A DNA stretch of 64,000 nt from an uncultured Ignavibacteria bacterium (GTDB taxonomy: Bacteria; Zixibacteria; MSB-5A5; CAIYYT01): assembly GCA_964520555.1 (NCBI GenBank), contig CAZFNN010000004.1, forward strand, positions 128,134-192,133. Direction: 5' to 3'. This document shows, piece by piece, positions 15,577-60,051 of this stretch. Positions within the stretch are counted from its first letter, which is position 1. Each line of letters starts with the position of its first letter. The notes below the pieces were generated by a model that was not told the DNA's origin, made no database searches, and saw nothing but the letters and a program-made list of their open reading frames with translations. The position numbers were made by a program, and so were the translations under genes.

Positions 15577-17730
15577 TCAAGGCTGGAGCTTCAGCACCTT
15601 CAACAGAAACGCGAACTCAAATGCGATCTCCTTGTAAGCCTCATAACGCCCCGACGCCCCGCCGTGACCGGCATCCATGTTGGTCTTCAGCAACAGCAAA
15701 TTGCCGTCGGTCTTCATGGCGCGCAACTTGGCGCAGAATTTCGCCGGCTCCCAGTACGCCACGCGCGGATCGTTCAAGCCGGCGGTAATCAAGATCGGCG
15801 GATAGTTCGTGGCACGGACATTGTCGTACGGCGAATACGAGCGCATGTAGCTGTAATATTCCGGCTGAAGCGGATTGCCCCATTCCTCCCATTCGGTGAC
15901 CGTCAACGGAATCGTCGAGTCCGCCATGGTGTTGATCAAGTCAACAAACGGCACATCGGCAACGACCGCACCCCACAAATCGGGTCGCATCGTCAACACC
16001 GACCCGACCAGCAGACCGCCGGCGCTACCGCCATAAGCGATGACCTTGTCCTCGGCCGCGTACTTCTCGTTGATCAGGTGCTCGGCGCAGGCGATGAAGT
16101 CGGTGAAGGTGTTCTTCTTGTTCAGCAGCCGGCCGGCATAGTACCACGGCCGCCCCATCTCGCCGCCGCCGCGCACCTGCGCAATCGCAAACACAAAACC
16201 GCGGTCGAGCAGGCTGATCCGGGCCACCGAAAACCACGGGTCCTCCGGAATTCCATAAGCGCCGTAGCCGTCAAGATACACCGGGTTCGTTCCGTCCTTG
16301 CGAAACTTGTCCTTGCGGTAAACGAGCGCGATCGGCACCTGCACCCCGTCCGGCGCCGTCGCAAAAATGCGCTCGGCCTGATATTGCGTGGCATCATAAC
16401 CGCTGGGAATTTCGTCCTGCTTCAGAAGCTTGCGCTCGCGCGATTCCATGTCGTATTCAAACACCGATTTCTGTGTCGTCAGCGACATGTAGGTAAACCG
16501 CAGCATCCGGCTGTTGAAGTCGGGATTGCTGTTGAATAGTGCCGTGAACGTTGCTTCCGGAAATTCGATGTTGTGCCCCGCCTTGTCGCTCAAGCGCACG
16601 ATCTTGAGCTGAATCAATCCGTTCTGGCGTTCGCTGATAGCGACGTAATCCTTGAAGGTCTTCATCGACTCGACCCGGATCTCCTCGCGGTACGGCAGGA
16701 ACTCCTTCCAGTTCGCCTTGCCCGGATTGCTCGCCGGCGCCGTCATCACCTTGAAGTTGAGCGCGTTGTCGTTGGTGATAATGAAAAACTGGTCGTCGTG
16801 CGGGAACACGTAATACTCCAGGCCCGCCTGGCGCGGCTGCACCACCTTGAATTCGCCGAGCGGGTTGTTGGCGTCGAGGTAGAGTGCTTCCGAGGTCGTC
16901 TCGCTGCCCAGATCGATCATGATCCAGCGCTTGTTGCGCGACAGCGCCACGTCGACGAAGTAGTGATCGTCCGGCTCCTCAAAAATCAGCTTGTCCGCGC
17001 TTGCGGCGCTGCCGAGCACGTGACGATAGATGCGATACGGCCGGTAGGTTTCGTCGAGCACGTCGTAGAAAAGCGTGTGGTTGTCCGCAGCCCAGGCGAT
17101 GCTGTTGCCGACGTTGGGCACGTGGTCGCTCAGCAGTTCGCCGCTCTGCAGGTCCTTGACATACAGCGTGTAGACCTCGCCGCCCGTCGTATCGACCGAG
17201 TAAGCCAGCAACTGGTGATTCGGGCTGATGCCGTACGCGCCGACGTGCAGATATTCCTTCCCGACCGCCAGCTCGTTTTCGTCGAGCAGAATTTCTTCCG
17301 GCGCCTCCAGACTCCCCAACTTGCGGCAGTGGATCGCATATTCCTTCCCTTGCTCGGTGCGCGAGTAGTAGTAGTAGTTATCAACCTTTTCCGGCACGCT
17401 CAGGTCGGTCTCTTTGATGCGGCCGATGATTTCCTTGTAGATCTGCTCCTGCAGCGCCTCCGTGTCTTTCATCATCGCCTTGGTGTGTTCGTTCTCGGCT
17501 TCGAGATAGTCGAAAACATCCGGATCGGTGCGGTCGCGCAGCCAGAAGTAGTTGTCGATGCGCACATCGCCGAACAGCGTGTCCGCCTTGGGAATCACCG
17601 TCGCCACCGGCGGTGTCGGCGCCTGCGCCAGCGCGGCTGCGCTCAAGCCAAGGACAATCAAAACCCAGATTGCTGTGAGCTTACTGAGTTCAAATCTGTT
17701 GAACCGAAGAGTCATTCTTTTCCTCCGCAT
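15577..17730 (-). CDS. ptrB: Oligopeptidase B / prolyl oligopeptidase (S9A)
   Basis: 717 aa. Signal peptide, N-terminal 7-blade propeller, GGSAGGLLVG nucleophile motif and C-terminal Asp/His. Confidence 0.8.
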   Translation of the reverse strand: MRRKRMTLRFNRFELSKLTAIWVLIVLGLSAAALAQAPTPPVATVIPKADTLFGDVRIDNYFWLRDRTDPDVFDYLEAENEHTKAMMKDTEALQEQIYKEIIGRIKETDLSVPEKVDNYYYYSRTEQGKEYAIHCRKLGSLEAPEEILLDENELAVGKEYLHVGAYGISPNHQLLAYSVDTTGGEVYTLYVKDLQSGELLSDHVPNVGNSIAWAADNHTLFYDVLDETYRPYRIYRHVLGSAASADKLIFEEPDDHYFVDVALSRNKRWIMIDLGSETTSEALYLDANNPLGEFKVVQPRQAGLEYYVFPHDDQFFIITNDNALNFKVMTAPASNPGKANWKEFLPYREEIRVESMKTFKDYVAISERQNGLIQLKIVRLSDKAGHNIEFPEATFTALFNSNPDFNSRMLRFTYMSLTTQKSVFEYDMESRERKLLKQDEIPSGYDATQYQAERIFATAPDGVQVPIALVYRKDKFRKDGTNPVYLDGYGAYGIPEDPWFSVARISLLDRGFVFAIAQVRGGGEMGRPWYYAGRLLNKKNTFTDFIACAEHLINEKYAAEDKVIAYGGSAGGLLVGSVLTMRPDLWGAVVADVPFVDLINTMADSTIPLTVTEWEEWGNPLQPEYYSYMRSYSPYDNVRATNYPPILITAGLNDPRVAYWEPAKFCAKLRAMKTDGNLLLLKTNMDAGHGGASGRYEAYKEIAFEFAFLLKVLKLQP

Positions 17731-22892: not shown

Positions 22893-23094
22893 GTGACCAG
22901 CAACAAATCACGCCGGCAATCCAGCCGCCGCGACTCGCCGATCGATAATACGCCCATTCCGGCAGGCCGTCAATCGCTATTTTCGTCGCCGCGTCGCGCC
23001 CGTCGCGTTTACGCTTTCTTCTTGCTCTTCGTAATTACGGTCGTTATTGTCAGATCGCAACGCCGCATCGCGTTGCCGTTTAGAGGAGAGATCA

Positions 23095-24612
23095 ATGACC
23101 GTTCCCAAACCGCGTTTGCCGCGCTTAGCTTACAATTGGATTAGTTCGCTCGGAGCGTTTATTGCGCTCGCCGTCGCGCTGGTGATCATCGTGATGCTGA
23201 TCATCAACTTCACGATGGAGCAAACCAGCGCCTACTTCGGCATCTTCCTCTACATGGTCCTGCCGGCCATTCTCATCTTCGGCCTCATCCTGATCCCGAT
23301 CGGCATGTTCCGCGAATGGCGCCGCTGGAAACGTGGCGAATCCTCCGAGTTGCCCAAGTGGCCGCTCGTCGATCTCAATAATCGGCGCCACCGCAATGCC
23401 ACCGCGATCTTTATCGTTGGCACGGTGCTGTTCTTCGCTATCTCCGCCGTGGGCAGCTACCAGGCTTACCACTATTCCGAGTCGGTCAAGTTCTGCGGCA
23501 CGACCTGCCATACCGTGATGGAACCGCAGTACACGGCTTACCAGGCGTCGCCCCACGCACGCGTCGCCTGCGTGGAATGCCATGTCGGCACCGGCGCCTC
23601 CTGGTACGCCAAATCCAAGCTCTCCGGCGCCTATCAGGTCTACGCCGTCATGGCCGATGTCTACCCGCGCCCCATTGCCACTCCGATTCGCGATCTGCGT
23701 CCGGCGCGCGAGACCTGCGAAGAGTGCCATTGGCCGGAGAAAACCTACGGTCAGGAACTGCGCACTTTCACGCACTACATGTACGACGATGACAACCCCA
23801 GATGGACGACCGACATGCGCATCATCACCGACACCGGTGAGCCGCACGCGGGGCAGAAAGCCGGCATCCATTGGCATATCAACCCTGACATCGCCATCGA
23901 ATACATCGCCCGCGACTACGGCCGCCAGGATATCCCCTGGGTCCGCGTGACCGAGAAATCGACCGGCACCGTCGCCGTCTACGAGGACGAATCGAATCCG
24001 CTGGATCAAGCGGCGCGCGACACGCTGGCCGTGCGCGTAATGGACTGCATCGACTGCCACAACCGCCCCAGCCACATTTATCGCTCGCCCGATTACGCCG
24101 TTGACCGCGCGCTTCAGTCCGGTTTCATCGATCCGACCTTGCCCGGGATCAAGGCACTGTCGGTCGAAACCATGGCGGCCGAATACGAAACCAAAGACGC
24201 TGCGCTGTCCGCCATCTCGACACGGATCAACGACCACTACGAAGACGTCGGACTCCTGGACGATCCGGCGCGGCGCGGCGCGGTCGACTCGGCGATCGTC
24301 GCAGTTCAACGGGCCTTTACCCAGAATATCTTCCCCTATATGAAGGCCCGCTGGGACGTCTATCCGAACAACATCGGCCACTTCAACGACATCGGCTGCA
24401 TGCGCTGCCATGCCGGTAACCACAAAGCCTCCGACGGCGCGGCAATTACGCACGATTGCTCCGCCTGCCATACGATTGTGGCGCAGGGTCTGGCCGGCGC
24501 CATGGAACGCGATTCCACCGGTCTCGGTCTCGAGTTCAAGCATCCCGTCGACATCGACGATGCCTGGAAGGAAACCGGCTGCTACGAATGTCATGCCGGC
24601 GTCCAGCCATAG
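23095..24612 (+). CDS. Inner-membrane multiheme (7 CxxCH) cytochrome c with N-terminal NapC/NirT-type quinol-dehydrogenase module (ImcH/CymA-like)
   Basis: Two N-terminal TM helices, then CGTTCH, CVECH, CEECH, CIDCH, CMRCH, CSACH, CYECH. RBS AGGAGAG lies 7 nt upstream of the ATG at 23095. Confidence 0.75.
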   Translation: MTVPKPRLPRLAYNWISSLGAFIALAVALVIIVMLIINFTMEQTSAYFGIFLYMVLPAILIFGLILIPIGMFREWRRWKRGESSELPKWPLVDLNNRRHRNATAIFIVGTVLFFAISAVGSYQAYHYSESVKFCGTTCHTVMEPQYTAYQASPHARVACVECHVGTGASWYAKSKLSGAYQVYAVMADVYPRPIATPIRDLRPARETCEECHWPEKTYGQELRTFTHYMYDDDNPRWTTDMRIITDTGEPHAGQKAGIHWHINPDIAIEYIARDYGRQDIPWVRVTEKSTGTVAVYEDESNPLDQAARDTLAVRVMDCIDCHNRPSHIYRSPDYAVDRALQSGFIDPTLPGIKALSVETMAAEYETKDAALSAISTRINDHYEDVGLLDDPARRGAVDSAIVAVQRAFTQNIFPYMKARWDVYPNNIGHFNDIGCMRCHAGNHKASDGAAITHDCSACHTIVAQGLAGAMERDSTGLGLEFKHPVDIDDAWKETGCYECHAGVQP

Positions 24613-24673
24613 CACCGCCGCCGCGACTCCCCGCCAGGCTCTGAGCACTCCTCCAACTCAGTAGTCATCTACC

Positions 24674-24701
24674 ATTGACATAATCGTCTAAATCGATATA
24701 T
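24674..24701 (+). promoter_or_regulatory. Sigma70-like promoter (TTGACA-N16-TATATT)
   Basis: Perfect -35 at 24674-24679, 16-nt spacer, -10 TATATT at 24696-24701, upstream of the dockerin beta-propeller gene. Confidence 0.4.
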
Positions 24702-24763
24702 TTAGGCGATTATTGGATGCCACATACCATTGCTGCCGAGCTGAACCTACGATTGGAGGAGAC

Positions 24764-26236
24764 GTGAATCGCACCGTCATCGGGATACTCATCATTGCGT
24801 TGTTCATCTGCTTGCCGCTTGCCGTTCAAGCGAGTGACTTTGTCTTGGACAGCATTGCCACCTTCACCTATCCGAGTGCCGGCAACCTCGGCGGCTCCGA
24901 CTGCTGGGGTTGGAAAGCTCCGGACGGCACGCTCTACGGCTTGATGGGCGTACGCAGCGGAATCGCGGTTGTCAACGTCTCGGCCCGTCTGCCGGTGCAG
25001 GTTGTACCCGGTCCTCAGAACAGCTGTTCCGCCTACTGGCGCGACATCAAGACCTACCAGCACTACGCATACTGCACCTCCGAGTGCCTCGGCACCAATC
25101 AGGGCCTTATGATTATCGACCTGCAGTACCTGCCCGACAGTGTCCATTTTATGAAGTCGATCCCGGTGCATCCTTCCGGCGATGTGACCTCGCATAACCT
25201 CTCGATCGATACCCTCAACGGCTTCGCCTATCTCGAGGGTCGCAATCAGGCCGCCATGTCGATTCACGTCTTCAGTCTGGCCGACCCGGAAAACCCGGTC
25301 CACGTGCACAGCTTTGGCGATGCCATCGGCATTCACGACGTCCTTGCGACCGACGACACGATCTACGTCGCCGACGGCAATGCGCCCACCATCTCGATCT
25401 ACAACATGACTGTCAAGACCGCCCCGGCGCTGATCTCGCGCGTCACGATTCCCAGCGCCGGCTACGTGCACAATGTCTGGCCGACTGATGATCGTCAGCA
25501 CATGGTCACCACCGAAGAGACTACCGGCAAGACAATCAAGGTCTGGGACATATCCAACCTCAGCAACGTGCAGCTCGCGGGCAGCTTCCTCGGCAATTCC
25601 AACGTTGCCCACAACGTGCATTGCTGGGGCAATTTCGTCTACATCTCGCATTACGCCGCCGGTGTCGAGGTCTGGGACATTGCCACTCCGTCGACGCCGA
25701 CTGTCGTCGCCCGTTTCGACACCTGGTCGACCGCTTCCGGTTTCGATGGCTGCTGGGGCGCGTTCCCCTTTGCCGATTCCGGTTACGTTTACGGCTCAAA
25801 TATGAACGGCAAGTTCTTCATCCTGCAGTTGCGTGATACGACCGTGGTGGCTGACGACGATTCCGACGGTGTCGGCAACCCGACCGACAACTGCCCGCTC
25901 CTGGCCAATCCGCTCCAGGAGGACGCCGACCACGACGACATCGGTGATCTCTGCGATAACTGTCCCAACAACGCCAACCCCGGGCAGCAGGATTCCGACA
26001 ACGACGGTATCGGTGATGCCTGCGACGCGCTTTGCGGCGACTCCGACGGCTCTGCCAGTCTTTCAATCGCCGACGCTGTCTTTGTGATCAATTTCATCTT
26101 TGCCGGCGGTCCGGCGCCGAATCCGACGGATGCCGCCGACGTCAATTGCGACGGCAACGTCAACATTTCCGACGCCGTCTACTTGATCAATTTCATTTTT
26201 GTCGGTGGTATGAATCCCTGCGCCAACTGCTTGTAG
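24764..26236 (+). CDS. Secreted beta-propeller protein (LVIVD / choice-of-anchor-B-like) with thrombospondin-type-3 Asp-rich repeats and C-terminal dockerin-type repeats
   Basis: Signal peptide. Repeated VWDIS / VEVWDI propeller motifs. DSDGVGNPTDNCP..DADHDDIGDLCDNCPNNANPGQQDSDNDGIGDACD are TSP3 repeats. Two dockerin repeats (LSIADAVFVINFIFAGG, VNISDAVYLINFIFVGG). Start taken as GTG 24764 after GGAGGA; ATG 24713 is the alternative. Confidence 0.65.
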   Translation: MNRTVIGILIIALFICLPLAVQASDFVLDSIATFTYPSAGNLGGSDCWGWKAPDGTLYGLMGVRSGIAVVNVSARLPVQVVPGPQNSCSAYWRDIKTYQHYAYCTSECLGTNQGLMIIDLQYLPDSVHFMKSIPVHPSGDVTSHNLSIDTLNGFAYLEGRNQAAMSIHVFSLADPENPVHVHSFGDAIGIHDVLATDDTIYVADGNAPTISIYNMTVKTAPALISRVTIPSAGYVHNVWPTDDRQHMVTTEETTGKTIKVWDISNLSNVQLAGSFLGNSNVAHNVHCWGNFVYISHYAAGVEVWDIATPSTPTVVARFDTWSTASGFDGCWGAFPFADSGYVYGSNMNGKFFILQLRDTTVVADDDSDGVGNPTDNCPLLANPLQEDADHDDIGDLCDNCPNNANPGQQDSDNDGIGDACDALCGDSDGSASLSIADAVFVINFIFAGGPAPNPTDAADVNCDGNVNISDAVYLINFIFVGGMNPCANCL

Positions 26237-30028: not shown

Positions 30029-30619
30029 ATGAAACCCGCAACCGCCAAAATCCTGATCCTGCTTTCGCTGTCCGGCGCCGCCTTCTTACTGATCACTTGC
30101 GCCCAAAGCGGGAGCAAACCGCTCACCGAGGCCGAACTCGTCCAACGTGGCGCCTATCTCGTCTCGTCCGGCCTCTGCAACGACTGCCACTCGCCCAAGA
30201 AATTCACCGCCGCCGGCCCGGTCCCGGACGAGTCGATTCTCCTCTCCGGCCACCCAGCTTCGTTGTCGGCGCTCGATTTCCCCGCCGACAAGCTCGACCC
30301 CAACGGCTGGGCTGTCATGACCAATGGCCACTTCACCGCTTGGGCCGGTCCCTGGGGCATCTCCTTCGCCGCGAATCTCACGCCGGACGAAAAAACCGGT
30401 CTCGGGACGTGGAAAGAAGAAGACTTCATCAAGGCCGTACGCTCCGGCAAGCACATGGGCACCGGCCGCGATATTCTACCGCCGATGCCGTGGCCGCTGA
30501 TCGGCAAGATGTCGGATGATGATCTCAAGGCGATCTTCGCCTATCTTCAATCATTGCCGGCCGTGCCGAATCTCGTTCCCGGCCCGATTCCGCCGCCGAC
30601 ACCCCCGGCGCAGAATTAG
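30029..30619 (+). CDS. Monoheme c-type cytochrome lipoprotein (copy 1)
   Basis: Lipobox LLITCAQSG, single CNDCH heme site, distal PPMPW region. 196 aa. Confidence 0.75.
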   Translation: MKPATAKILILLSLSGAAFLLITCAQSGSKPLTEAELVQRGAYLVSSGLCNDCHSPKKFTAAGPVPDESILLSGHPASLSALDFPADKLDPNGWAVMTNGHFTAWAGPWGISFAANLTPDEKTGLGTWKEEDFIKAVRSGKHMGTGRDILPPMPWPLIGKMSDDDLKAIFAYLQSLPAVPNLVPGPIPPPTPPAQN

Positions 30620-30727
30620 CGCGCTTCACCGCCGAACACCATAGGCTCAGTCCCCGCTCCGGCAACCGAGTGGGGACTGCTCCAGGCCCCGCCCCGCTAT
30701 TCTCGTGAATATAGCTCCACATTTTCC

Positions 30728-30755
30728 TTGACACCCCCGGCAAGCGCGCTAAACT
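30728..30755 (+). promoter_or_regulatory. Sigma70-like promoter TTGACA-N16-TAAACT for cytochrome c copy 2
   Basis: Identical -35 and -10 hexamers and spacing to the copy-1 promoter. RBS AAGGAGTG precedes the ATG at 30786. Confidence 0.5.
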
Positions 30756-30785
30756 ACCGGCGGAAACTAACGCAAGGAGTGTCTC

Positions 30786-31388
30786 ATGCAGCCAACCACT
30801 GCCAAGATCGTACTTTTCCTGTCGCTGATCGGTGCTGCGTTGCTCTTGATTACCTGTGCCCAAAGCGGCAGTGGCGACCAACCCTTAACCCAGGAACAAC
30901 TCGTCCAGCGCGGCGAGTATCTCGTCACCATTGGCGGATGCAACGACTGCCATTCGCCGAAGAAGTTCGGCCCGAAAGGCCCCGAGCCCGATCCGTCGAT
31001 CCTGCTCTCGGGTCATCCCGCCAACGCCGGCGTGCCGGAGATGGTCCCCGGCCTACCGAATCCCGCCGGCTGGATGGCCGCGTGCAATGCGCACATGACC
31101 GCCTGGGTCGGCCCGTGGGGTGTTTCTTTCGCCGCCAATCTCACGCCCGATTCCCAGACCGGCATCGGCGACTGGGAGGAGGCCGATTTCATCAAGGCGA
31201 TGCGCACCGGCCAGCATCTCGGCATGGGTCGCGACATCCTGCCGCCGATGCCGTGGCAGACGATCGGCAAAGCAACCGACGCGGACCTCAAAGCGATGTT
31301 TGCGTATTTGAAGTCGCTGCCGGCCGTGCCGAATCTCGTGCCGGGCCCGGTTCCGCCGCCGCAGACGGAAGCGCCCGCACACAACTGA
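30786..31388 (+). CDS. Monoheme c-type cytochrome lipoprotein (copy 2, tandem paralog)
   Basis: Lipobox LLITCAQSG and CNDCH. 200 aa. Highly similar to the 30029-30619 product. Confidence 0.75.
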   Translation: MQPTTAKIVLFLSLIGAALLLITCAQSGSGDQPLTQEQLVQRGEYLVTIGGCNDCHSPKKFGPKGPEPDPSILLSGHPANAGVPEMVPGLPNPAGWMAACNAHMTAWVGPWGVSFAANLTPDSQTGIGDWEEADFIKAMRTGQHLGMGRDILPPMPWQTIGKATDADLKAMFAYLKSLPAVPNLVPGPVPPPQTEAPAHN

Positions 31389-35852: not shown

Positions 35853-37235
35853 TTACAGATCCGAAAGCTCCAGCTCCGTGATCTGCCCAAACTGTTTCAG
35901 CTTGTCGCGCAAAGCCTCAGCCTTGCCGACCACGACGATCAACAGATTGTTCGGATCGAGATACTTCTGCGCCACCGCACGCACCTGCTGGGGCGTGACC
36001 GCATTGAGATAGTCGATATACTTCGCCAGGTAATCCTTCTCCAGCCCGTACAATTCGACAATCGAGAGCTGGTCGGCTACCTGCTCCGGCGTCTCGAACT
36101 GCCGCGGGAAAAATCCGGCGTAGAACGATTTCGCCTCGCTCAGCTCCTGCGCCGTAACATCGGTATCACGCATGCGGTTGAGATGCTCGATCGTCGCGGC
36201 AATCGCCGGCGCGCACGAATCGGTGCGCGTCGCCACGGTGACCGCGAATTCCCCCGGGTAGCGATTGAACGCGTACATCGACGAAATCCCGTACGTCAAC
36301 CCGCGCTTGTCGCGCACGTCAATCAATAGCCGCGAACGGAAGCCGCCGCCGCCGAGGATGTAGTTCATCAGCCGCACGGCATAGATATCAGGATTCAGCC
36401 GGTCGATTCCCAAATGCCCCATCTTCACGTTGGCATTGGTCGCATCCGGCTTGTTCACGAGAATCACCGTGGTTCCGCGCACCGGGTTGGCCGGCGGGAA
36501 ATCGGCTTTCGCCAGTTCGCCCTTCAACCAGCCGGCTAGTTTCGCCTCGATCTTCGGCAGCACCTCCGCCGCCGTCACCGCGCCAGCCACGTAGAGCACA
36601 GAGTTGTTCGGCACGAAGTAAGTCTTCCAGAAATTCACGATGTCGTCGCGCGTGATCGTCTCGACTGACTCGATCGTCCCCGATCCCGGCTGCCCGTACG
36701 GATGTTCGCCGAAGAGGTACAATCCGAACTGAATGTCCGCCACGGTCCCCGGTTCGTCCTTCTGCGACATCAGCCCGGCGATCGCCTGCTTGCGGAGACG
36801 CTCGACCTCGTCCGCCGGAAACGTCGGATTCAGCACCACGTCCGCCAGCAGGTCAATCCCCACATCCAGATGTTTCGTCAACACTTCGCAGGTGACATTC
36901 ATCGCATCTTCGCGCGCGTTGGCGCCCAGACTGCCACCGACGAAATCGATTTCCTGCGACACCTTGGTAGCGTCCCGGGTCGTCGTTCCCTTGCGCAGCA
37001 ACTCGGCGGTCATATTGGCCAAACCGGCTTTGCCGCGCGGATCCATCGCCGCCCCCGACTTGATCAGAAGCCGCATCGACACCACCGGTTGCTCGTCATT
37101 CTGCACCACTACGACTCTCAGGCCGTTGTCGAGCACCTTCTCCGTCATCGGCGGCATCGCGATCGCGCCCATCACCTGCGTCGCCGCCAGCGCGAACACC
37201 ATCAGACTTGTCACTATCATCAAACGTTTTCGCAT
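35853..37235 (-). CDS. M16-family peptidase, non-catalytic (M16B-type) subunit
   Basis: Signal peptide. Insulinase fold that lacks the HxxEH motif. Immediately downstream of the catalytic partner. Confidence 0.75.
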   Translation of the reverse strand: MRKRLMIVTSLMVFALAATQVMGAIAMPPMTEKVLDNGLRVVVVQNDEQPVVSMRLLIKSGAAMDPRGKAGLANMTAELLRKGTTTRDATKVSQEIDFVGGSLGANAREDAMNVTCEVLTKHLDVGIDLLADVVLNPTFPADEVERLRKQAIAGLMSQKDEPGTVADIQFGLYLFGEHPYGQPGSGTIESVETITRDDIVNFWKTYFVPNNSVLYVAGAVTAAEVLPKIEAKLAGWLKGELAKADFPPANPVRGTTVILVNKPDATNANVKMGHLGIDRLNPDIYAVRLMNYILGGGGFRSRLLIDVRDKRGLTYGISSMYAFNRYPGEFAVTVATRTDSCAPAIAATIEHLNRMRDTDVTAQELSEAKSFYAGFFPRQFETPEQVADQLSIVELYGLEKDYLAKYIDYLNAVTPQQVRAVAQKYLDPNNLLIVVVGKAEALRDKLKQFGQITELELSDL

Positions 37236-37250
37236 GATTCTGCTTCCTCC

Positions 37251-38591
37251 CTAAAATCCCATCATTCCGCTGCCGCCCTGCTGTTCCTGGATCACGGTCA
37301 CCACCGTGCGCTTGCGGTCGGTCAGATAATCCTTGGCAACGCGCATGATGTCTTCGGCCGTCACGGCATTGTACTTCTCCGCCTCGGTAAACATCTGCTT
37401 GTAGTCGCCCAACACCGTCTGATAGTAGCCGAGCTGGTTGGCCTTGGCATCGTTCGACTGGTTGCCCATGTAGAACCGCGCCTCGATCTGGTTCTTGGCC
37501 TTCTGCAGCTCTTCCGCACTCACCGGCTCGGTCTTCAGCTTCTCGATCTCTTCGTACAGCGCTTTCTCGCCGTCGGCCGTGGTCTTGCCCGGCTGCATGA
37601 AGCCGTAGGCGAAGAACACGCCCGCCTGCTCCATCGACTGGTACTGCCCCCCCGCCGCCAGCGCCATCTGCTCCTTGTAGACTAACCGCTGATAGGCGCG
37701 CGACGACTCGCCACCCGACAATATCGCCGCCAACACGTCGAGCGGATAGCTGTCGGGATGGCCCGCCGCCGGTGACTGGTAACCGGCAATGAAAATCGGT
37801 AATTGCGAAATCTTGTGGTAATTCACCCGCCGCTCGCCGCGCTGTTCCGGCTCGTTGTACACCGGCCGCGGCATCTTTGGATTCCCCGGGATCTTGCCGA
37901 AATGCTTCTCGACGACCTTGATCGCCTCCGGCGTGTTGACGTCACCGACGATCACCACCGTCGCATTAGCCGGGTTGTAATACGTGCGATAGTAGTTCAG
38001 GCAGTCTTCCAGTGTAATACTCTCAACGTCCTTGCGCCACCCGATCGTCATCCAGCCGTAAGAGTGCGCCAGGAACACGTTCGCCATCAATTGCTCCAGT
38101 ACGTCGCCGAAGGGCGAATTGTCGATCCGCTCGTTCCGCTCTTCCAGTACCACCTGCCGTTCCGAAGCCAACTGCGTCTCGGTCAGCGTCAGGTACTGCA
38201 TCCGGTCGGCCTCCAGTCGCGCCACCAGATCCAACTGGTCCTTGCCGACCTGCTGGTGATAGGCCGTCATGTCGTTCGCGGTGAAGGCGTTGATCAGCCC
38301 GCCGTTCATCTGCATCAACCGGTCGTGCTCGCCATCCGCGAAGTTCTTGCTGCCTTTGAACATCAGATGCTCGAACAGGTGCGAAATCCCGGTAATCCCC
38401 GGACGCTCGTTCTTCGACCCGACGTGATACCAGACGTGAAAACTGAAGGCCGGCGTCGAGTGATCCTCCAACGTCAGCACCGTCAGTCCGTTCTTCAGCA
38501 CATGTTTCTGCACCGGCCACTCCGATACTGTCGCCGACGCCAGCGCCGGCAGGAGCACCAGCAACATGGCCACTACCAAGAGTCTCTTCAT
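37251..38591 (-). CDS. M16-family zinc peptidase (pitrilysin-like), catalytic subunit
   Basis: HLFEHLMFKGS inverted zincin motif. The real start is MKRLLVV at 38591, with GGAGGA 5 nt upstream. The track start at 38816 adds 75 aa of Ala/Gly-rich read-through. Confidence 0.8.
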   Translation of the reverse strand: MKRLLVVAMLLVLLPALASATVSEWPVQKHVLKNGLTVLTLEDHSTPAFSFHVWYHVGSKNERPGITGISHLFEHLMFKGSKNFADGEHDRLMQMNGGLINAFTANDMTAYHQQVGKDQLDLVARLEADRMQYLTLTETQLASERQVVLEERNERIDNSPFGDVLEQLMANVFLAHSYGWMTIGWRKDVESITLEDCLNYYRTYYNPANATVVIVGDVNTPEAIKVVEKHFGKIPGNPKMPRPVYNEPEQRGERRVNYHKISQLPIFIAGYQSPAAGHPDSYPLDVLAAILSGGESSRAYQRLVYKEQMALAAGGQYQSMEQAGVFFAYGFMQPGKTTADGEKALYEEIEKLKTEPVSAEELQKAKNQIEARFYMGNQSNDAKANQLGYYQTVLGDYKQMFTEAEKYNAVTAEDIMRVAKDYLTDRKRTVVTVIQEQQGGSGMMGF

Positions 38592-38650
38592 TTGTCCTCC
38601 ATCGGGATATGTGATTTTTGACAGATATTCCCAGCACATTGCGTGTCGCT

Positions 38651-46794: not shown

Positions 46795-47502
46795 TTAGCT
46801 CTTTCGGTGGATTACAATCGCCGTGCCGCGCAGGGACATCTTTACCTCGTCGCCGACCATCTCGTTGCGCAATGTCCAGCTTTCACCGCGATAGACAGTC
46901 TTGTTTTTGAGGTTCCACTTCGCCCCTTCGATCGACAGCCGCACCTTGTTACTCAACGGAATCACCGAAAACTGTTCGCCCGACTTGCCCGCAAACTGAA
47001 TCGTCCCCTCCGACCGGAGCCAGATTCGCTGTCGATGGTCGAGCAATTCGCCAGACGGCGGCGGCTTCAGTGAACTGCCGGCGCGCAGGATCAAGTCGAG
47101 CAAGAAGATATTCGCCAGCATTTGATCGGTCTCAAAGCTTGTGTCAATCGCGCCGTAAATCTCAATCTGACGGCAGTCGTGTTCCAGCGCATAGCGCACC
47201 GCTAACTCGCCGTCGGTCGCGTCCTTGTTGCGCGGATACTCCACCCGCTCGCAGTCGTCGAATTGCGCCAGCACCGCCGGATCAACCGAGTCGAAGTCCC
47301 CAAGAACCACCTGCGGCCGCAAATCCAGCTTGGCAAACAGCGCCAGCGCGCCGTCCACCGCAATTACGATCCGCTCCTCTTCCGCCCGGCTGACCGCCTG
47401 GCGGTAGAAATCCAGATGCTCGGTCGGGTACGCTCCGTTCAGGAAGATCGCCGCCGTCCTGTGCCCGCGTCGTTTCTTTCGTTTCTCCATTGCTGCCGTC
47501 AC
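46795..47502 (-). CDS. thiN: Thiamine pyrophosphokinase
   Basis: FLNGAYP...AVDGGA...LGDFDS catalytic motifs plus a C-terminal thiamine-binding domain. Confidence 0.75.
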   Translation of the reverse strand: MTAAMEKRKKRRGHRTAAIFLNGAYPTEHLDFYRQAVSRAEEERIVIAVDGALALFAKLDLRPQVVLGDFDSVDPAVLAQFDDCERVEYPRNKDATDGELAVRYALEHDCRQIEIYGAIDTSFETDQMLANIFLLDLILRAGSSLKPPPSGELLDHRQRIWLRSEGTIQFAGKSGEQFSVIPLSNKVRLSIEGAKWNLKNKTVYRGESWTLRNEMVGDEVKMSLRGTAIVIHRKS

Positions 47503-47550
47503 TTCATCCGATTATTTTTCGAGCACACAATCTATCGTGGAGACGTCCTC

Positions 47551-49514: not shown

Positions 49515-50660
49515 TCAGTTGTCCAACTCCGCCAGTCCGTTCTTGCTGACGGCCCCGGGCGGGTTGTCGTTCAAGTACTCGATCGAACGGTTTAGCATCG
49601 CTTCAAAGAACTTCGCGTTGTGCATGCCCCGCGAACGATCCTCTTTGTAGATTACCCAGTTGTATAGCGCGCCGGCAACGGCTACTGGAAGCGTGGCCGT
49701 TATTTGGGCGAAGTCTTCACGTAATGCACCCTGAGCCACCAAAAGGGTTCCCAGCGAGTCGTGCAGCAGGTCAAACTCGGTTTGAATGCCCTCGGTAATG
49801 CCATCGCCGTTAAGATCCCGCAATTCCCAGTCGTCGAAATCGGTAATGGCCGGCTGACCTTGCGGTTGTGGACCATACTCGTCAGCCTCGTTGTGACAGC
49901 CTTGAGTCGCGCAAGTTCCAACCAGAGTGTATTCAGTCCCGTCATGAGCCTCAAAGCGCATGTTGAAACTGTGCCCGCCGACATTGTAGCCGTCATGTTG
50001 CGAGGGATTGCCCATGTGGCAGCCGACACAAGCATCGCGAACAATACTTGCGTGCTCAGTGCTTGGATAGGCAGCGCCCCCAAAGGTGTACGCGTGAGTT
50101 CCTTGAACCATATCGCCTTGCGGCCCGTGGTGCGGGCCAAAACGATTATTGACACCCTTGGTCGGACCAGCGCCAAGGTCAGCCGTCATCGAAGTGCGGG
50201 TGTGGTGACACTGCACGCACAAATTCGCCTGGCCATGATCAAACACAACTCCGTTCTTCAACGTGTACGGCTCATCGATACGCAGCGTCAGATCGCCTCG
50301 TTCATGCGGAGCATGGCACGTGAAACAATGAATCGAACTCACGGTCGATTGGGCCAGCGAGTCTTCTTCACCAGTGCCGATCCAATCCAGGAAGCCCTGG
50401 TGGTTATGGCACTGCTGGCAATCGGAGCCGGGGCGATTGGTGTAGTCAATGCTCGTGCCCGAAGCATGCAGCGAATTTTCCCACTCGCCGCGCGCTTGCA
50501 GCAACGCGCCGTCAAAGCTGGTCTCGCCGTGGCAGGCAAAACAACCGTTCAGGCTCTGGTCGTTGCTGGCAATTTCGTTAACGATTTTGCGCTCGCATCC
50601 TGCGATCAACGCCATCGCCAGAACGAGGGCGACAATGATTAGTGCTTTCAGGATCCTCAT
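49515..50660 (-). CDS. Outer-membrane lipoprotein multiheme cytochrome c (5 CxxCH + 1 CX4CH), MtrC/OmcB-role candidate
   Basis: Lipobox LIAGC. CFACH, CQQCH, CFTCH, CVQCH, CVGCH and C-terminal CATQGCH. AGGAGG RBS 5 nt upstream. Last gene of the three-gene operon. Confidence 0.75.
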   Translation of the reverse strand: MRILKALIIVALVLAMALIAGCERKIVNEIASNDQSLNGCFACHGETSFDGALLQARGEWENSLHASGTSIDYTNRPGSDCQQCHNHQGFLDWIGTGEEDSLAQSTVSSIHCFTCHAPHERGDLTLRIDEPYTLKNGVVFDHGQANLCVQCHHTRTSMTADLGAGPTKGVNNRFGPHHGPQGDMVQGTHAYTFGGAAYPSTEHASIVRDACVGCHMGNPSQHDGYNVGGHSFNMRFEAHDGTEYTLVGTCATQGCHNEADEYGPQPQGQPAITDFDDWELRDLNGDGITEGIQTEFDLLHDSLGTLLVAQGALREDFAQITATLPVAVAGALYNWVIYKEDRSRGMHNAKFFEAMLNRSIEYLNDNPPGAVSKNGLAELDN

Positions 50661-50669
50661 ACTAACCTC

Positions 50670-52220
50670 CTAAAAGGATAATCCTTTAATCAAACTAACT
50701 TCTACCACATTGCCGGTGTAGTAATCCTCGTACACCGACAGATCATCGAAATTGTAAGCATTATATTCGACTTCGCAGCGGTAGTCCTGATAGAACCGCA
50801 GCGCCGCCGCAATCCGAATATTGAAGTGCTCGACGTTGAGATCGCGCTTGCTCTTGTAATAGAGCGCGCCGAAGCTCACCGTCCCGCCCTTGTACTCCTG
50901 GCTGGTGATATCGCCGGAGACCAGATGATCCTGGAACTCGAAGTTCCGGGTCAGGTTTTCGTAGGTCCCCGCCGAGTGCACGTACGCCGCGTTCAGCGTG
51001 GCATACTCCGTCGCGGTAATCACCGCATCAACGGCATAGCGGTACATGTCGGCCTTGGTGCCGAGCTGGTCGTTCTTGCGAATCACGCTCGTCATCTTGT
51101 AGCCGAATGTGCCGATCTTCTCGGGACGATACTTCACCGAAAACGCGTGCCGGTTGCGTTCCTCGTCCCCCAGCAGCCGCACGCCGTCTTCCACTTCTTC
51201 CTTGCGATTACCAAACTGGTAACGGACTTCCACCTCCGGCACCGGCTTGCCCCAGCCGCTGAAGAACAGCGAATTGCCACGCACTTCGTCCTCGAAATCG
51301 TCGTTGACGTCGTACTGATATCCGACCGTCAGGCCGAACCGGCGCAGGTAGTCATACGAGGCATACCCCGCGTGCGTCATGTTGTCGGTCGCGACGAAAT
51401 CGGAATCCGATGACGTGCGGTCGAGGATGCCGATATACTTCAGGCTGATATTCTGCGGCAGATTCAGCACGCCGCCGCCGTAGCCGCGGTTGTTGCTGAT
51501 CGTGAAATCACTCTGGTCAAACTTCGTCTCGAAGTGCCGGAAGCCGCCGATCAACTTGAAGAAATCATACTTCGGGCAGGCAAGAATGCCGCTGAACCGG
51601 TATTCTGCCCGCTTCTGGTCGCGCTGAACATCGTTGTTGTCGGTGTACTGATCGCCGCGGTACTCACCCAGCACCATCGAACCCTTATAATTGAACTGCG
51701 CGCCGAAGTTGTAGTAGGTGCGCTTGTAGTCGACATTGACCTCGGTCGGATCCGGCTTCGGATTGAACAGGTCGGTCGTCGTGCCGGTTCGTTCCATCAT
51801 CAAAAGTCCGCCGAATAGCGTCACATACTCCACCGGCGTCACGCGCAAGTTGGCATGTTCCTGATGCCGCCGCGTGAAGCTGGTACCGTTGAAATTGTAG
51901 ATCCGCCGGAACTGATCATGACCCACCCGCAAATCGAACTGCCCCGGCTTGGCCAGCGACGCGCTCAGATTGCGATTGTTCATGATGATGTTCTTCAGAT
52001 CCGCCCGCACCTGCATGCCATTGTCAAAGCGATAACGGAAGCCGTCGAGCGAAATCGTCGGACCTTCGTACAGATTGAATGTCGGATGGTGAACCGACTG
52101 GTTGCCCTCTTCATCCAGATAGACGTAGCCGACGCGCACCTCGCCGGAGCCGGTAGCCGCAACGGCCACTGCCGCCAGCATCAGGAGGGCGCCCAACAGA
52201 AACGATAACTTCAGTTTCAT
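50670..52220 (-). CDS. Outer-membrane beta-barrel protein (MtrB/OmbB-role porin of a porin-cytochrome complex)
   Basis: Signal peptide MKLKLSFLLGALLMLAAVAVA. Alternating aromatic/hydrophilic strands throughout and a C-terminal ...LIKGLSF. No heme sites. AAGGAGGGAG RBS. Sits between the two cytochrome genes with 9-12-nt gaps. Confidence 0.7.
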   Translation of the reverse strand: MKLKLSFLLGALLMLAAVAVAATGSGEVRVGYVYLDEEGNQSVHHPTFNLYEGPTISLDGFRYRFDNGMQVRADLKNIIMNNRNLSASLAKPGQFDLRVGHDQFRRIYNFNGTSFTRRHQEHANLRVTPVEYVTLFGGLLMMERTGTTTDLFNPKPDPTEVNVDYKRTYYNFGAQFNYKGSMVLGEYRGDQYTDNNDVQRDQKRAEYRFSGILACPKYDFFKLIGGFRHFETKFDQSDFTISNNRGYGGGVLNLPQNISLKYIGILDRTSSDSDFVATDNMTHAGYASYDYLRRFGLTVGYQYDVNDDFEDEVRGNSLFFSGWGKPVPEVEVRYQFGNRKEEVEDGVRLLGDEERNRHAFSVKYRPEKIGTFGYKMTSVIRKNDQLGTKADMYRYAVDAVITATEYATLNAAYVHSAGTYENLTRNFEFQDHLVSGDITSQEYKGGTVSFGALYYKSKRDLNVEHFNIRIAAALRFYQDYRCEVEYNAYNFDDLSVYEDYYTGNVVEVSLIKGLSF

Positions 52221-52231
52221 TCTCTCCCTCC

Positions 52232-53185
52232 TTAGTGCTTCAGGTTGTCGTGACAACCGGAGGCGTAGCAGTTGGCGTAAAGGGTGGTCGTCAGCATCGG
52301 GTCAAGAAACAGCTTGTTGTCGTTCGAACCGTGGAATTGCGTGTGGCAATTCACGCAGTCGATCTTGACCGCCATGCCGGAATGGGCAACGCGATGGCCG
52401 GGCGGCACACCGTGGCACTGAATGCAGACACCGTTGCCGGGCTGCAACAGGAGGCGCTCATTCGGCGAACCGTGCGGACTGTGGCACTCCACGCAGCCGC
52501 CGCCGTCGACCAGGTGGTTGTAGTTGACCGGATGCTCGTAGACGTGCGGCCCCGCCACATCCGAGTGGCAGTTCTGGCACGTCCAGTCGAACCCCTTGAC
52601 CAACTGCATATCCTGGCGGCTATTCATCGGGTGGCAGTCGGCACACGCCACGCTGCCTTCGTGCAGCGGATGCGCCGAGCGCGCGCTGAACTGGGCGCCG
52701 ACCGTTTGATGGCAGCCGAGACAGTAATTTTCGCTGTCATCCTTCACCAGCGCCGCATTCTCATTCCCGTGAATCGAATGGCAACTTGCACAATCCAGCC
52801 CGGCGCGGCCGTGCGGATCGGTCGTCACCATCAGAGCCTGATGCTCGTTCTGGTGGCACGAGGCGCAGGCATTCGCCTGCTCGGCAAACGGCAGCTTGCT
52901 TGGCACCACCGGCTTGTTGGCTTCCGGATCATCCAAGTGCGTCTCATAGCCGCCGTGACACCCGACACAGGAAACCGTGATGCCGCGAGCACCCGCTGCG
53001 GGAAGCGCGTGTCTTGATCCGAGAAGATTGTCCGCCATGTCCTGATGACACTCGAGGCAAGCCTCATTCGACGCACTCGTGGTTCCCTCCGCGGTCAGCG
53101 GAACGGTTGCCAGGAGCGCACCGAACAAGCCCAGCAGCGATATGACGATCAGGATGGGGGCGGGTTTCTTCAGTCTTCTATTCAT
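52232..53185 (-). CDS. Periplasmic multiheme cytochrome c (10 CxxCH + 1 CX4CH), MtrA/DmsE/OmaB-like
   Basis: 317 aa with signal peptide. CLECH, CVGCH, CASCH, CASCH, CLGCH, CADCH, CQNCH, CVECH, CIQCH, CVNCH and CYASGCH. Spacing of about 25-30 aa per heme is typical of MtrA. Confidence 0.8.
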   Translation of the reverse strand: MNRRLKKPAPILIVISLLGLFGALLATVPLTAEGTTSASNEACLECHQDMADNLLGSRHALPAAGARGITVSCVGCHGGYETHLDDPEANKPVVPSKLPFAEQANACASCHQNEHQALMVTTDPHGRAGLDCASCHSIHGNENAALVKDDSENYCLGCHQTVGAQFSARSAHPLHEGSVACADCHPMNSRQDMQLVKGFDWTCQNCHSDVAGPHVYEHPVNYNHLVDGGGCVECHSPHGSPNERLLLQPGNGVCIQCHGVPPGHRVAHSGMAVKIDCVNCHTQFHGSNDNKLFLDPMLTTTLYANCYASGCHDNLKH

Positions 53186-59655: not shown

Positions 59656-60051
59656 GATAGGTTATTCCTCGGTCGTGCACATAGCGGTTTTCACCGATCT
59701 TCAGATCGACGATCCCCTGATTCATTTTCTCTCCCCGTGTCGACAAAAACAACTTGACAAGGATTATCCATGATATTTACATCCGCCTACAATCACGCAA
59801 AAACACAACCCGGTCTCGGGTCCATTCGAACACCAAACGTCAAGGCGAGCGAAAGGTCGATGAGCCTATTGTCGTTTAGTCGCGTCCGCGGCCAACTGCA
59901 TACGGTCGCGCCGATGAACGCATGGCACGGCGCATAAGGAGGTGGTGACGGCACGTAGGGGCGGCAGGCAGACATCTGGACATTCTCGGAACATTGATGA
60001 CATTGTCTTTAATCGATGGCACGATTCTCACAGTGGAGGAGAGGAATCTCA

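Follow-up and report, generated by a model that had tools for sequence, protein, structure and literature searches.

The imcH-family gene at positions 23095-24612 of the 64,000-nucleotide stretch of DNA analysed here (the window) encodes a 505-residue protein that, judged by its sequence, belongs to the known ImcH family as an ordinary and complete representative. Geobacter employs its seven-heme inner-membrane ImcH to send electrons of the quinone pool to extracellular minerals. It is likely that this Zixibacteria ortholog oxidises menaquinol at a periplasmic pocket and passes the electrons over seven hemes to periplasmic cytochromes. To our knowledge, extracellular electron transfer is started by quinol oxidases of just three families, ImcH among them. 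A first-pass annotation had proposed an inner-membrane heptaheme quinol dehydrogenase of the ImcH type at the entry to such a pathway, a reading that is upheld by a full-length match to Geobacter-type ImcH, by the features of the family, by linkage to a conduit operon in related genomes and by the failure of the alternatives. The gene and the signals around it are listed below.

23095..24612, + strand: imcH-family gene (ORF and translation), encoding a 505-aa inner-membrane heptaheme c-type cytochrome
23083..23088, + strand: Shine-Dalgarno sequence GAGGAG, with the ATG 6 nt downstream
23057..23076, + strand: hairpin with a 7-bp stem and 6-nt loop (GCAACGC-N6-GCGTTGC) in the presumed 5' UTR, of doubtful significance
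24675..24702, + strand: promoter-like site TTGACA-16-TATATT (11/12), downstream of the imcH stop and ahead of the next gene, a consensus match only

The frame opens with the ATG at 23095, its stop codon ends at 24612, and homologs 503-505 aa long begin at the same Met; together with a GC3 of 0.78 this bears out the ORF as real. A 507-aa antisense ORF (23125-24648) was discarded as a GC-driven shadow because its GC3 is lower (0.59), as was an alternative TTG start at 23047, which has no ribosome-binding site and is not where homologs begin. The consensus ribosome-binding site of the first-pass annotation was confirmed, and a GGAG-type purine-rich motif also lies upstream of imcH in relatives. 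The hairpin described there is present too. Its folding energy is no better than chance (z = -1.6 to -1.7; equalled by 11-18 of 200 shuffles), and the 7-bp stem occurs at the same position only in the closest relatives (L008 and L013), being absent from L012, L014, L016 and L018. We rejected it as a regulatory element for want of statistical support and of conservation beyond those relatives. The promoter-like site after the imcH stop suggests that the gene is monocistronic here.

As Geobacter reference we used a metagenome locus (L005) carrying a G. sulfurreducens-type imcH, found with the coding-region primer 3259KHis1. Seven Levar 2014 primers match this locus in the correct order with 0-2 substitutions each, and its 507-aa product has E127, H137, K173, Q179 and Y188 at the published positions. 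The other matches to 3259KHis1 in the metagenome collection were six-heme ImcH relatives (L003, L007) or contigs without an ImcH-like ORF, while the genomic part of primer 3259K3 gave one chance match only in the genome collection, in a Lachnospiraceae MAG (L001). BLASTP aligned the 505-aa protein with the reference over 488 aa at 42% identity (E 1e-142, 7 gap positions), inside the range of 31.5-49% published for Geobacter ImcHs against those of other phyla (PMC6295460). Each of the seven heme sites lines up with its counterpart in the Geobacter-type protein (C132-GEL-C136-H137, and CXXCH at 157, 206, 312, 429, 449 and 487). The membrane helices and heme sites of the protein are as follows.

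23134..23208, + strand: TM helix 1, ~residues 14-38 (hydropathy; AlphaFold helix 15-40)
23230..23304, + strand: TM helix 2, ~residues 46-70 (hydropathy; AlphaFold helix 46-79)
23398..23466, + strand: TM helix 3, ~residues 102-124 (hydropathy), the NrfH/NapC-homologous anchor into the periplasmic heme domain
23494..23511, + strand: heme 1 site C134-G-T-T-C138-H139, an atypical CX3CH and ImcH hallmark
23569..23583, + strand: heme 2 site CVECH, residues 159-163 (motif; aligned with Geobacter-type ImcH)
23716..23730, + strand: heme 3 site CEECH, residues 208-212 (motif; aligned likewise)
24046..24060, + strand: heme 4 site CIDCH, residues 318-322 (motif; aligned likewise)
24397..24411, + strand: heme 5 site CMRCH, residues 435-439 (motif; aligned likewise)
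24457..24471, + strand: heme 6 site CSACH, residues 455-459 (motif; aligned likewise)
24580..24594, + strand: heme 7 site CYECH, residues 496-500 (motif), the likely exit heme

Two transmembrane helices had been claimed at first; hydropathy and the AlphaFold model both give three, the third hydrophobic segment (~102-124) corresponding to AlphaFold helix 97-135. Likewise, the total of seven heme sites held, but not their description as CXXCH throughout, the first being CGTTCH and the other six CXXCH. A CX3CH first site is the hallmark of ImcH (PMC4251993, PMC6295460), and the helices of GSU3259 lie at residues 13-35, 45-67 and 100-122 (Table S3, PMC6295460). The supposed NapC/NirT-type tetraheme module had to be reduced: the matches to Pfam PF03264 (residues 102-188) and TIGR03153 (108-213) both start at TM helix 3, and homology at the sequence level spans only this helix and hemes 1-3. 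As criteria for ImcH we took three N-terminal helices, a CX3CH right after the third, six further CXXCH and, for the seven-heme form, a length of 495-519 aa. The 505-aa protein shows all of these features, and its NapC/NirT homology is, as in ImcH, confined to TM3 and the first hemes. With three helices and a CX3CH site, the match to ImcH is therefore stronger than the first-pass annotation assumed. Because K5, R7 and R10 are present, the N-terminus is probably cytoplasmic, and the basic loop after TM helix 2 (9 Arg/Lys within residues 72-101) probably lies on the same side.

The family comprises 730 clusters at 50% identity (E<=1e-30). The closest relatives of the protein are from Zixibacteria, the best at 93% identity, and Geobacter ImcH ranks 22 of 133 by identity to it. 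Counted over 134 family sequences, the CX3CH motif is present in 133, the heme 7 site in 75 (~56%), and the residues of the putative quinol pocket are conserved to differing degrees.

23479..23481, + strand: Glu129, equivalent to Geobacter E127 of the proposed quinol site (BLASTP alignment); E or D in 120/134
23518..23520, + strand: Met142 of CX3CH-xx-M, invariant (134/134), aligning with the Met that ligates heme 1 in NrfH (HMMER, 2j7a_C)
23617..23664, + strand: K175 (133/134), Q181 (118/134) and Y190 (Tyr in 107/134, Phe in a further 19) in the proposed quinol pocket (K173, Q179 and Y188 in Geobacter)

The pairing of E129, K175, Q181 and Y190 with E127, K173, Q179 and Y188 comes from the BLASTP alignment to L005, and roles in the quinol pocket have been proposed for all four in Geobacter ImcH, as has an exit role for heme 7 (bioRxiv 10.1101/2023.05.03.539133). 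The AlphaFold model of the present protein has a pLDDT of 45-57 across residues 129-220, and Foldseek against the PDB gave no match; for Geobacter ImcH, TM3 and hemes 1-4 of an AlphaFold model have been reported to overlay NrfH. Geobacter ImcH oxidises menaquinol electroneutrally and reduces PpcA (bioRxiv 10.1101/2023.05.03.539133), and GSU3259, an inner-membrane protein, is needed for acceptors above ~-0.1 V (PMC4251993, bioRxiv 10.1101/2023.05.03.539133). By analogy, we infer the following course for the Zixibacteria protein. Held in the inner membrane by its three helices, with its N-terminus in the cytoplasm and its heme domain in the periplasm, it would bind menaquinol beside heme 1 (the CX3CH site) at the periplasmic face, in a pocket formed by E129, K175, Q181, Y190 and the invariant M142. 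On oxidation of the quinol, protons would be released to the periplasm in an electroneutral reaction, and the electrons would run through the c-type hemes, seven in all, as far as heme 7, which would be exposed to solvent and would reduce periplasmic cytochromes.

Placement in the family was judged from family-model cut-offs and pairwise statistics. One rival possibility is that the protein is a dehydrogenase of the NrfH, NapC, CymA or TorC type, serving a soluble periplasmic nitrite, nitrate, TMAO or DMSO reductase and not extracellular electron transfer. PF03264, the model of the NapC/NirT N-terminal region, does pass its cut-off (33.1 versus 24.1 bits), NrfH is the best match in both NCBIfam and the PDB, databases label relatives 'NapC/NirT family cytochrome c', and L021 carries a molybdopterin oxidoreductase on the opposite strand, 1.8 kb from imcH. 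However, the NrfH equivalog TIGR03153 reached only 48.9 of the 134.2 bits required, the TorC models 17 and 14.8 of 455 and 478, and the PDB match to NrfH covers 79 residues at E 0.0017, compared with the full-length E of 1e-142 for ImcH. Three helices, seven hemes and 505 aa also depart from the one-helix tetraheme and pentaheme families. Elsewhere in the window heme motifs occur only in the conduit and two monoheme cytochromes; the window holds no molybdopterin enzyme, no nrfA or nap partner and no pentaheme NrfA-like ORF, and nrfA or napA was beside imcH in none of the 13 related contexts. The first-pass annotation had named an NrfH/NapC affiliation next to nrfA or nap genes as the finding that would overturn it; what we found instead were NrfH scores below cut-off and no such genes nearby. 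Of its label 'ImcH/CymA-like', the first half is borne out by the 488-aa alignment and the second half falls on architecture and family models; CymA homologs are, moreover, confined to Proteobacteria (PMC6295460). From these comparisons an NrfH/NapC/CymA/TorC identity appears largely refuted, and service to a soluble reductase is very improbable. A Pfam scan of the protein likewise detected no Ni_hydr_CYTB or other b-type domain; CbcL, MtrH or MtoC should carry a C-terminal one fused to a multiheme c domain.

A possible route from ImcH to the cell surface is encoded by three genes on the other strand of the window.

52232..53185, - strand: MtrA/DmsE-like periplasmic decaheme cytochrome, 317 aa with 10 CXXCH, the first conduit gene (Pfam Paired_CXXCH_1, NrfB-like)
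50670..52256, - strand: putative outer-membrane porin, 528 aa as an ORF, with weak MtrB/PioB matches below cut-off
49515..50660, - strand: pentaheme lipoprotein cytochrome, 381 aa with 5 CXXCH and an LIAGC lipobox, a putative outer-face component

The decaheme protein scored 163 bits against TIGR03508, below its cut-off of 192, the porin ORF likely starts at the internal Met of MKLKLSF, and the pentaheme protein gave a weak Pfam match to MtrC/MtrF domain II/IV. This operon (49515-53185) is 25 kb from imcH, whose immediate neighbours, dnaX and an LVIVD/TSP3/dockerin protein, are unrelated to respiration, and the window contains no PpcA-like periplasmic shuttle. The two relatives nearest to this genome (93% and 85%) likewise have imcH next to dnaX, at a distance from the conduit.

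The first-pass annotation had suggested a search for co-occurrence in related genomes, and conduit orthologs were indeed found within ~3.3 kb of imcH in three of them. In L012 all three follow imcH directly on the same strand (71%, 62% and 66% identity), in L016 they are 3.3 kb away and convergent, and in L018 they adjoin imcH convergently; the porin orthologs are 62%, 51% and 46% identical in L012, L016 and L018, where orthologs of the decaheme and pentaheme lipoprotein are also beside or near imcH. In L020, L019, L023 and L014, imcH is bordered by CbcL-like cytochromes and by an MtrA-like/outer-membrane pair of another kind. The sample consists of 13 phylogenetically related contexts, and neighbour counts leave out the upstream genes predicted for L021 and L022, whose coordinates gave no clean translation. 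In the 2018 survey, mtrAB was next to imcH in 0 of 71 homologs (PMC6295460). One could regard ImcH as a hub that serves periplasmic electron transfer in general and has no particular functional bond with the 49515-53185 conduit, the linkage reflecting islands of cytochrome genes. The dnaX neighbourhood here and in the two closest relatives would fit this, as would imcH neighbours that vary widely among genomes (hydrogenase, CbcL-like, TonB) and a Geobacter imcH that is monocistronic and constitutively expressed (PMC4251993). Yet the same three-gene conduit recurs close to imcH in three genomes, arranged differently in each, whereas chance would bring the two within 10 kb in ~0.6% of cases per ~3.5 Mb genome, which leaves such a hub with hardly any probability. 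The adjacency in three relatives therefore supports a functional chain from quinol to the surface. Of the complete path originally envisaged, the part made of ImcH and the conduit is retained and the duplicated monoheme cytochromes are dropped, no link to them having been found: as partners of ImcH we rejected the two in the window, which are not homologous to the monohemes adjoining imcH in L020 and L023.

The direction of electron flow can also be questioned, since ImcH might work in reverse or both ways, with electrons from Fe(II) or another extracellular donor entering through an MtrA/MtoA-like conduit to the quinone pool or a Rieske/cytochrome b complex. In L018 imcH ends a Rieske/cytochrome b/multiheme operon, in L023 it is linked to a Rieske/cytochrome b operon with multiheme cytochromes, and in L020 and L023 Class I monoheme cytochromes c are encoded directly upstream of it, all of which could suit such a flow. 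Class I monoheme cytochromes c are often high-potential proteins. Conduits of the MtrA/MtoA/PioA type run both ways in different organisms (PMC6295460), and Zixibacteria MAGs with mtrAB have been read both as iron reducers and as iron oxidisers (PMC9769843). On the other hand, quinol oxidation is the one role so far ascribed to ImcH, whose homologs were seen only in Fe(III) reducers (PMC6295460), and for the hemes of the Geobacter protein titration gave -350 to -150 mV (bioRxiv 10.1101/2023.05.03.539133), a range that fits menaquinol oxidation coupled to a sink of higher potential. Uphill transfer from Fe(II) to quinone also needs an energy input that an electroneutral ImcH does not supply. 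We consider reverse or bidirectional operation unlikely and retain outward flow from menaquinol.

Beyond this, we advance three points as one joint proposal, on which we are evenly divided between acceptance and doubt. In Zixibacteria and some Thermoanaerobaculia-type relatives, ImcH may be the dedicated inner-membrane partner of a conduit made of an MtrA/DmsE-like decaheme cytochrome, a compact porin of ~520 aa and a small lipoprotein cytochrome; in some lineages imcH may be transcribed at the end of a Rieske/cytochrome b/multiheme operon; and family-wide heme 1 may, like that of NrfH, have an axial Met ligand, namely the invariant one of CX3CH-xx-M and not the Gln, which is less well conserved. 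If true, the first two points would describe a hybrid chain, absent from the 2018 survey, that is 'Geobacter-type' at its entry, 'Mtr-type' at its exit and possibly branched through a bc complex.

Zixibacteria are a widespread sediment phylum, and ImcH serves as a genomic marker for high-potential metal respiration. That an uncultured member encodes both a complete seven-heme ImcH and an Mtr-like conduit lends weight to the predicted respiration of Fe(III)/Mn(IV) minerals in the phylum. The database label 'NapC/NirT family cytochrome c' invites mis-assignment to nitrogen cycling, from which the signature of CX3CH and three helices separates ImcH. The recurring adjacency of imcH and conduit supplies a candidate, testable partner for ImcH outside Geobacter, where downstream partners are debated. 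These practical gains, a label problem resolved and a candidate partner, are modest but real.

Among known systems, CbcL, MtrH and MtoC resemble the protein as proposed inner-membrane quinol:cytochrome oxidoreductases feeding extracellular electron transfer. However, CbcL combines nine c hemes with a di-heme b domain of the HydC/FdnI type that has six helices (PMC6295460), whereas the three helices here are all N-terminal, and the proteins are not homologous beyond generic heme motifs. With NrfH of Desulfovibrio vulgaris (PDB 2j7a/2vr0) and the NapC/NirT/CymA family, homology extends over the anchor helix and first hemes: residues 108-213 align with NrfH model positions 5-110, the conserved K175 corresponds to NrfH K82, and a Met follows the first heme motif in both. 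Electroneutral quinol oxidation on the periplasmic side is presumed for NrfH, NapC and CymA as it is here, but those proteins have one helix, four hemes and ~140-190 aa, with a first site of CXXCH(X)M in place of CX3CH-xx-M. The nearest characterised counterpart is ImcH (GSU3259) of Geobacter sulfurreducens, similar in length (505 versus 507 aa), in its three N-terminal helices with CX3CH beside TM3, in six CXXCH at almost identical spacing, in the conserved pocket E/K/Q/Y and CH-xx-M Met, and in a gene apparently monocistronic in both. The two differ by 4 residues in the spacing of hemes 3-4 and by 3 in that of hemes 6-7, in phylum, in the adjoining MtrA-like/porin conduit of the relatives' imcH, and in that no PpcA-type triheme partner is visible in this window. 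Within Zixibacteria, the RBG-1 homolog EQB63199.1, listed already in 2018 (Table S3, PMC6295460), shares the three-helix and CX3CH layout, and a comparison of coordinates only places its hemes 1-6 at 134/158/207/316/433/453 against 134/159/208/318/435/455 here; it is, however, 478 aa long with six sites, without the seventh heme. The seven-heme form is instead one that the present protein has in common with Geobacter, Omnitrophica and Rokubacteria (Table S3, PMC6295460).

The imcH gene is an open reading frame on the plus strand that starts with an ATG at 23095, has a stop codon ending at 24612 and encodes a protein of 505 residues; a ribosome-binding site (GAGGAG) ends 6 nt 5′ of the ATG, as a first-pass annotation had described. 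The same methionine is the start in homologs of 503–505 residues, which rules out the TTG at 23047 as the start of imcH. An antisense frame of 507 residues (23125–24648, minus strand) spans nearly all of the gene. With a GC3 of only 0.59, compared with 0.78 for imcH, it was rejected as a shadow ORF of the kind typical of GC-rich coding DNA.

The annotation's two N-terminal transmembrane helices had to be revised, the protein having three hydrophobic helices (residues ∼14–38, 46–70 and 102–124). Its seven heme-attachment sites held up but not their description as seven CXXCH motifs, since the first is CGTTCH, that is CX3CH, and only the other six are CXXCH. Positive charges are found at the N terminus (K5, R7 and R10) and in the loop 72–101 (nine Arg/Lys), and because of this distribution the positive-inside rule would make both cytoplasmic and the heme domain periplasmic. 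In a structure model the central domain, flanked by hemes 3 and 5 (residues ∼220–420; 23755–24360), is a β-sheet plus helical bundle with pLDDT 85–97, for which Foldseek returned no structural neighbour in the PDB. To our knowledge, no member of the ImcH family has a solved structure.

Domain libraries placed the protein only loosely. Pfam matched just a partial NapC/NirT N-terminal region (residues 102–188, 33.1 bits), with generic c3/c7 motifs in the C-terminal part; the top NCBIfam model was NrfH, which reached 48.9 of the 134.2 bits required, with TorC, DmsE and the remaining models far below it; and the sole solved relative found by sequence was Desulfovibrio vulgaris NrfH, over 79 residues (E 0.0017). 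Its third helix and first hemes thus relate the protein to the NapC/NirT superfamily, which is as much of the proposed NapC/NirT-type first module as can be upheld, and it belongs to no curated Pfam or NCBIfam family. A role as NrfH or NapC alongside nrfA or nap genes, the alternative named by the first-pass annotation, has no counterpart in the 64-kb window, where a scan of ORFs detected no nrfA, nap or molybdopterin gene.

Geobacter-type ImcH proteins have 495–519 residues, three transmembrane helices, an atypical CX3CH beside the transmembrane domain and six CX2CH sites (PMC6295460); the corrected features predicted for our protein are exactly these. In Geobacter ImcH the heme-1 ligands are H137 and Q179, with E127, K173 and Y188 conserved, and the enzyme oxidises menaquinol, passes the protons to the periplasm and reduces PpcA directly (Pimenta et al., bioRxiv 10.1101/2023.05.03.539133). 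For pairwise comparison we used L005, one of six metagenome contigs matched by the imcH coding-region primer 3259KHis1. This contig (2070 bp, GC 0.61) is matched by seven locus-specific primers of Levar et al. 2014 with 0–2 substitutions and in the correct order and orientation, and its 507-residue protein has CX3CH at residue 132 and E127, H137, K173, Q179 and Y188 at the published positions; L005 therefore carries imcH from a very close relative of strain PCA. BLASTP aligned our protein with this authentic Geobacter-type ImcH at 42% identity over 488 residues (13–500 against 11–491; E 1e-142; 7 gap positions), with all seven heme sites in register and E129, K175, Q181 and Y190 paired with Geobacter E127, K173, Q179 and Y188. 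The match surpasses that to NrfH by about 140 orders of magnitude in E and, with heme sites and quinol-site residues paired, argues decisively for the ImcH identity first proposed. Identities between Geobacter-group ImcH and homologs of other phyla are 31.5–49% (PMC6295460).

The family is large: a word-indexed search gave at least ∼8,000 matches, the best among those listed being Zixibacteria proteins of 93, 85 and 78% identity labelled 'NapC/NirT family cytochrome c' by their sources, and an exhaustive representative search gave 3409, 1939 and 730 clusters (50% identity) at E ≤ 1e-3, 1e-10 and 1e-30. An alignment of 134 sequences joined our protein to Geobacter ImcH, one 6-heme relative and 131 representatives of nearly full length. 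By identity to ours Geobacter ImcH ranks 22 of 133, so our protein sits well inside the family. CX3CH and K175 are each kept in 133 members and hemes 2–6 in 132–134; position 129 is E or D in 120, position 190 is Y or F in 126, and the seventh heme is found in just 75, our protein being the complete 7-heme form. Q181, the proposed distal ligand, is kept in 118 and is less well conserved than Met142 (23518–23520), three residues past the heme-1 histidine (CX3CH-xx-M), which is invariant (134/134). HMMER pairs Met142 with the methionine of the NrfH CXXCHXM motif, a heme-1 ligand in NrfH; the paper on ImcH biochemistry says nothing of an equivalent methionine (both bioRxiv 10.1101/2023.05.03.539133).

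Neighbours of imcH and heme-motif ORFs of the window
5′ of imcH, divergent: dnaX–ybaB–recR cluster
24675–24702, between imcH and the next gene: promoter-like TTGACA-16-TATATT
24713–26236, plus, directly 3′ of imcH: secreted protein combining LVIVD and thrombospondin type 3 repeats with a dockerin domain
30029–30619 and 30786–31388, plus: tandem pair of class I monoheme cytochrome c lipoproteins, paralogs of 196 and 200 residues with an LLITC lipobox
49515–50660, minus: 5-heme lipoprotein, weak MtrC/MtrF domain similarity
50670–52256, minus: putative porin, 528 residues, weak MtrB/PioB similarity
52232–53185, minus: 10-heme MtrA/DmsE-like protein (TIGR03508 163 bits, under the 192 cut-off)

With a divergent 5′ neighbour and a promoter-like site before the 3′ gene, imcH looks monocistronic, as is Geobacter imcH (Levar et al. 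2014, PMC4251993). The LVIVD gene keeps its place in relatives at 85–93% identity; further out, other genes replace it. A hairpin claimed for the 5′ UTR (GCAACGC-N6-GCGTTGC, 23057–23076) is present, but its folding energy does not stand out (z −1.6 to −1.7) and a 7-bp stem recurs at this position only in the two closest relatives, L008 (one compensatory pair) and L013 (different sequence), being absent from four more distant ones; it would be at most a lineage-restricted UTR stem.

Among the ORFs of the 64 kb, heme motifs otherwise occur only in the monoheme lipoproteins, retained as a pair (30029–31388) in L008 and L013, and in the three-gene minus-strand conduit operon. Peptidases and housekeeping genes account for most of the other large ORFs. 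The peptidases, large and mostly secreted (15577–17730, 35853–41074, 47263–49317, 54569–57628 and 60016–62658), comprise S9 prolyl oligopeptidase, two M16, S49, M14, tricorn/S41-type and S8 subtilase (PKD domains, Por secretion tail) types, an unusual wealth that suggests a protein-degrading lifestyle. An 871-residue fusion of patatin-like phospholipase, POTRA and Omp85 outer-membrane domains is encoded at 43083–45698 (plus).

Thirteen distinct imcH contexts were examined, with orthology assigned by BLASTP. The divergent dnaX/imcH junction is retained in close Zixibacteria relatives (78–93% identity), and the 3′ gene varies.

Surroundings of imcH in related loci (ImcH identity to ours)
L012 (L012:10001–15518), 78%: conduit genes (71, 62 and 66% to the window's) directly 3′ on the same strand, 341-bp gap
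L016 (L016:10001–18418), 65%: convergent conduit 3.3 kb downstream
L018 (complete genome LS998015.1; L018:5562–15933), 56%: imcH is the final gene of an 8-heme/Rieske/cytochrome b/9-heme cluster, facing a convergent tetraheme and conduit module
L020, 57%: a more remote MtrA-like decaheme (33% identity), transcribed divergently, and a 639-residue gene; apparent cytochrome c–imcH–CbcL-like operon, the CbcL-like gene (L020:11476–13356) overlapping the imcH stop codon
L019, L023 and L014, 55, 55 and 78%: CbcL-like cytochromes close by (L019:11529–16617; L023:11643–13598; L014:1–3211)
L017, 58%: hydrogenase operon alone
L021 (CP070824.1), 57%: tetraheme cytochrome; molybdopterin oxidoreductase, 892 residues (L021:13348–16026, minus), 1.8 kb off on the opposite strand

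Three related Zixibacteria genomes thus have conduit orthologs no more than ∼3.3 kb from imcH, in three different arrangements, far more than expected by chance (about 0.6% for any one genome, with a radius of 10 kb and a genome size of 3.5 Mb), which supports a functional link between imcH and the window's conduit 25 kb away. The 2018 survey reported no mtrAB or mtoAB genes adjacent to any imcH (PMC6295460), so the linkage is a modest addition to knowledge. CbcL-like proteins, in which 11–23 heme motifs are joined to a b-type domain (Ni_hydr_CYTB), adjoin imcH or lie <10 kb off in four relatives; co-location of the two Geobacter-type quinol oxidases is therefore common in these phyla. The molybdopterin oxidoreductase of L021 is the sole hint among the 13 contexts of a soluble-reductase partner for ImcH. 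The quinol-to-surface path first proposed gains from the conduit linkage but not in its monoheme component: in L020 and L023 the monoheme cytochromes directly 5′ of imcH share homology with one another and not with the window's paralogs (BLASTP), whose place in the path is therefore unsupported.

By homology, menaquinol would bind on the periplasmic side beside heme 1, and electrons would pass through the seven hemes to heme 7 and then to periplasmic cytochromes; protons would go to the periplasm, making the quinol-oxidation step electroneutral. The most probable electron sink here is the MtrA-like conduit. ImcH could instead run in reverse for electron uptake, but low heme potentials and what is known of ImcH biology make that less likely.

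The ImcH family itself is already known, as are porin–cytochrome and mtrAB genes of Zixibacteria (mtrAB: PMC9769843), and only the imcH–conduit adjacency and the invariant methionine go slightly beyond the literature consulted. The 2018 list, which gives motif coordinates for 71 ImcH homologs, already includes a Zixibacteria protein, that of RBG-1 (Table S3, PMC6295460). That homolog has 478 residues and six sites, whereas ours has 505 and seven; the Rokubacteria and Omnitrophica homologs in the same table, with seven hemes and 504–505 residues, have motif coordinates near-identical to those of our protein.
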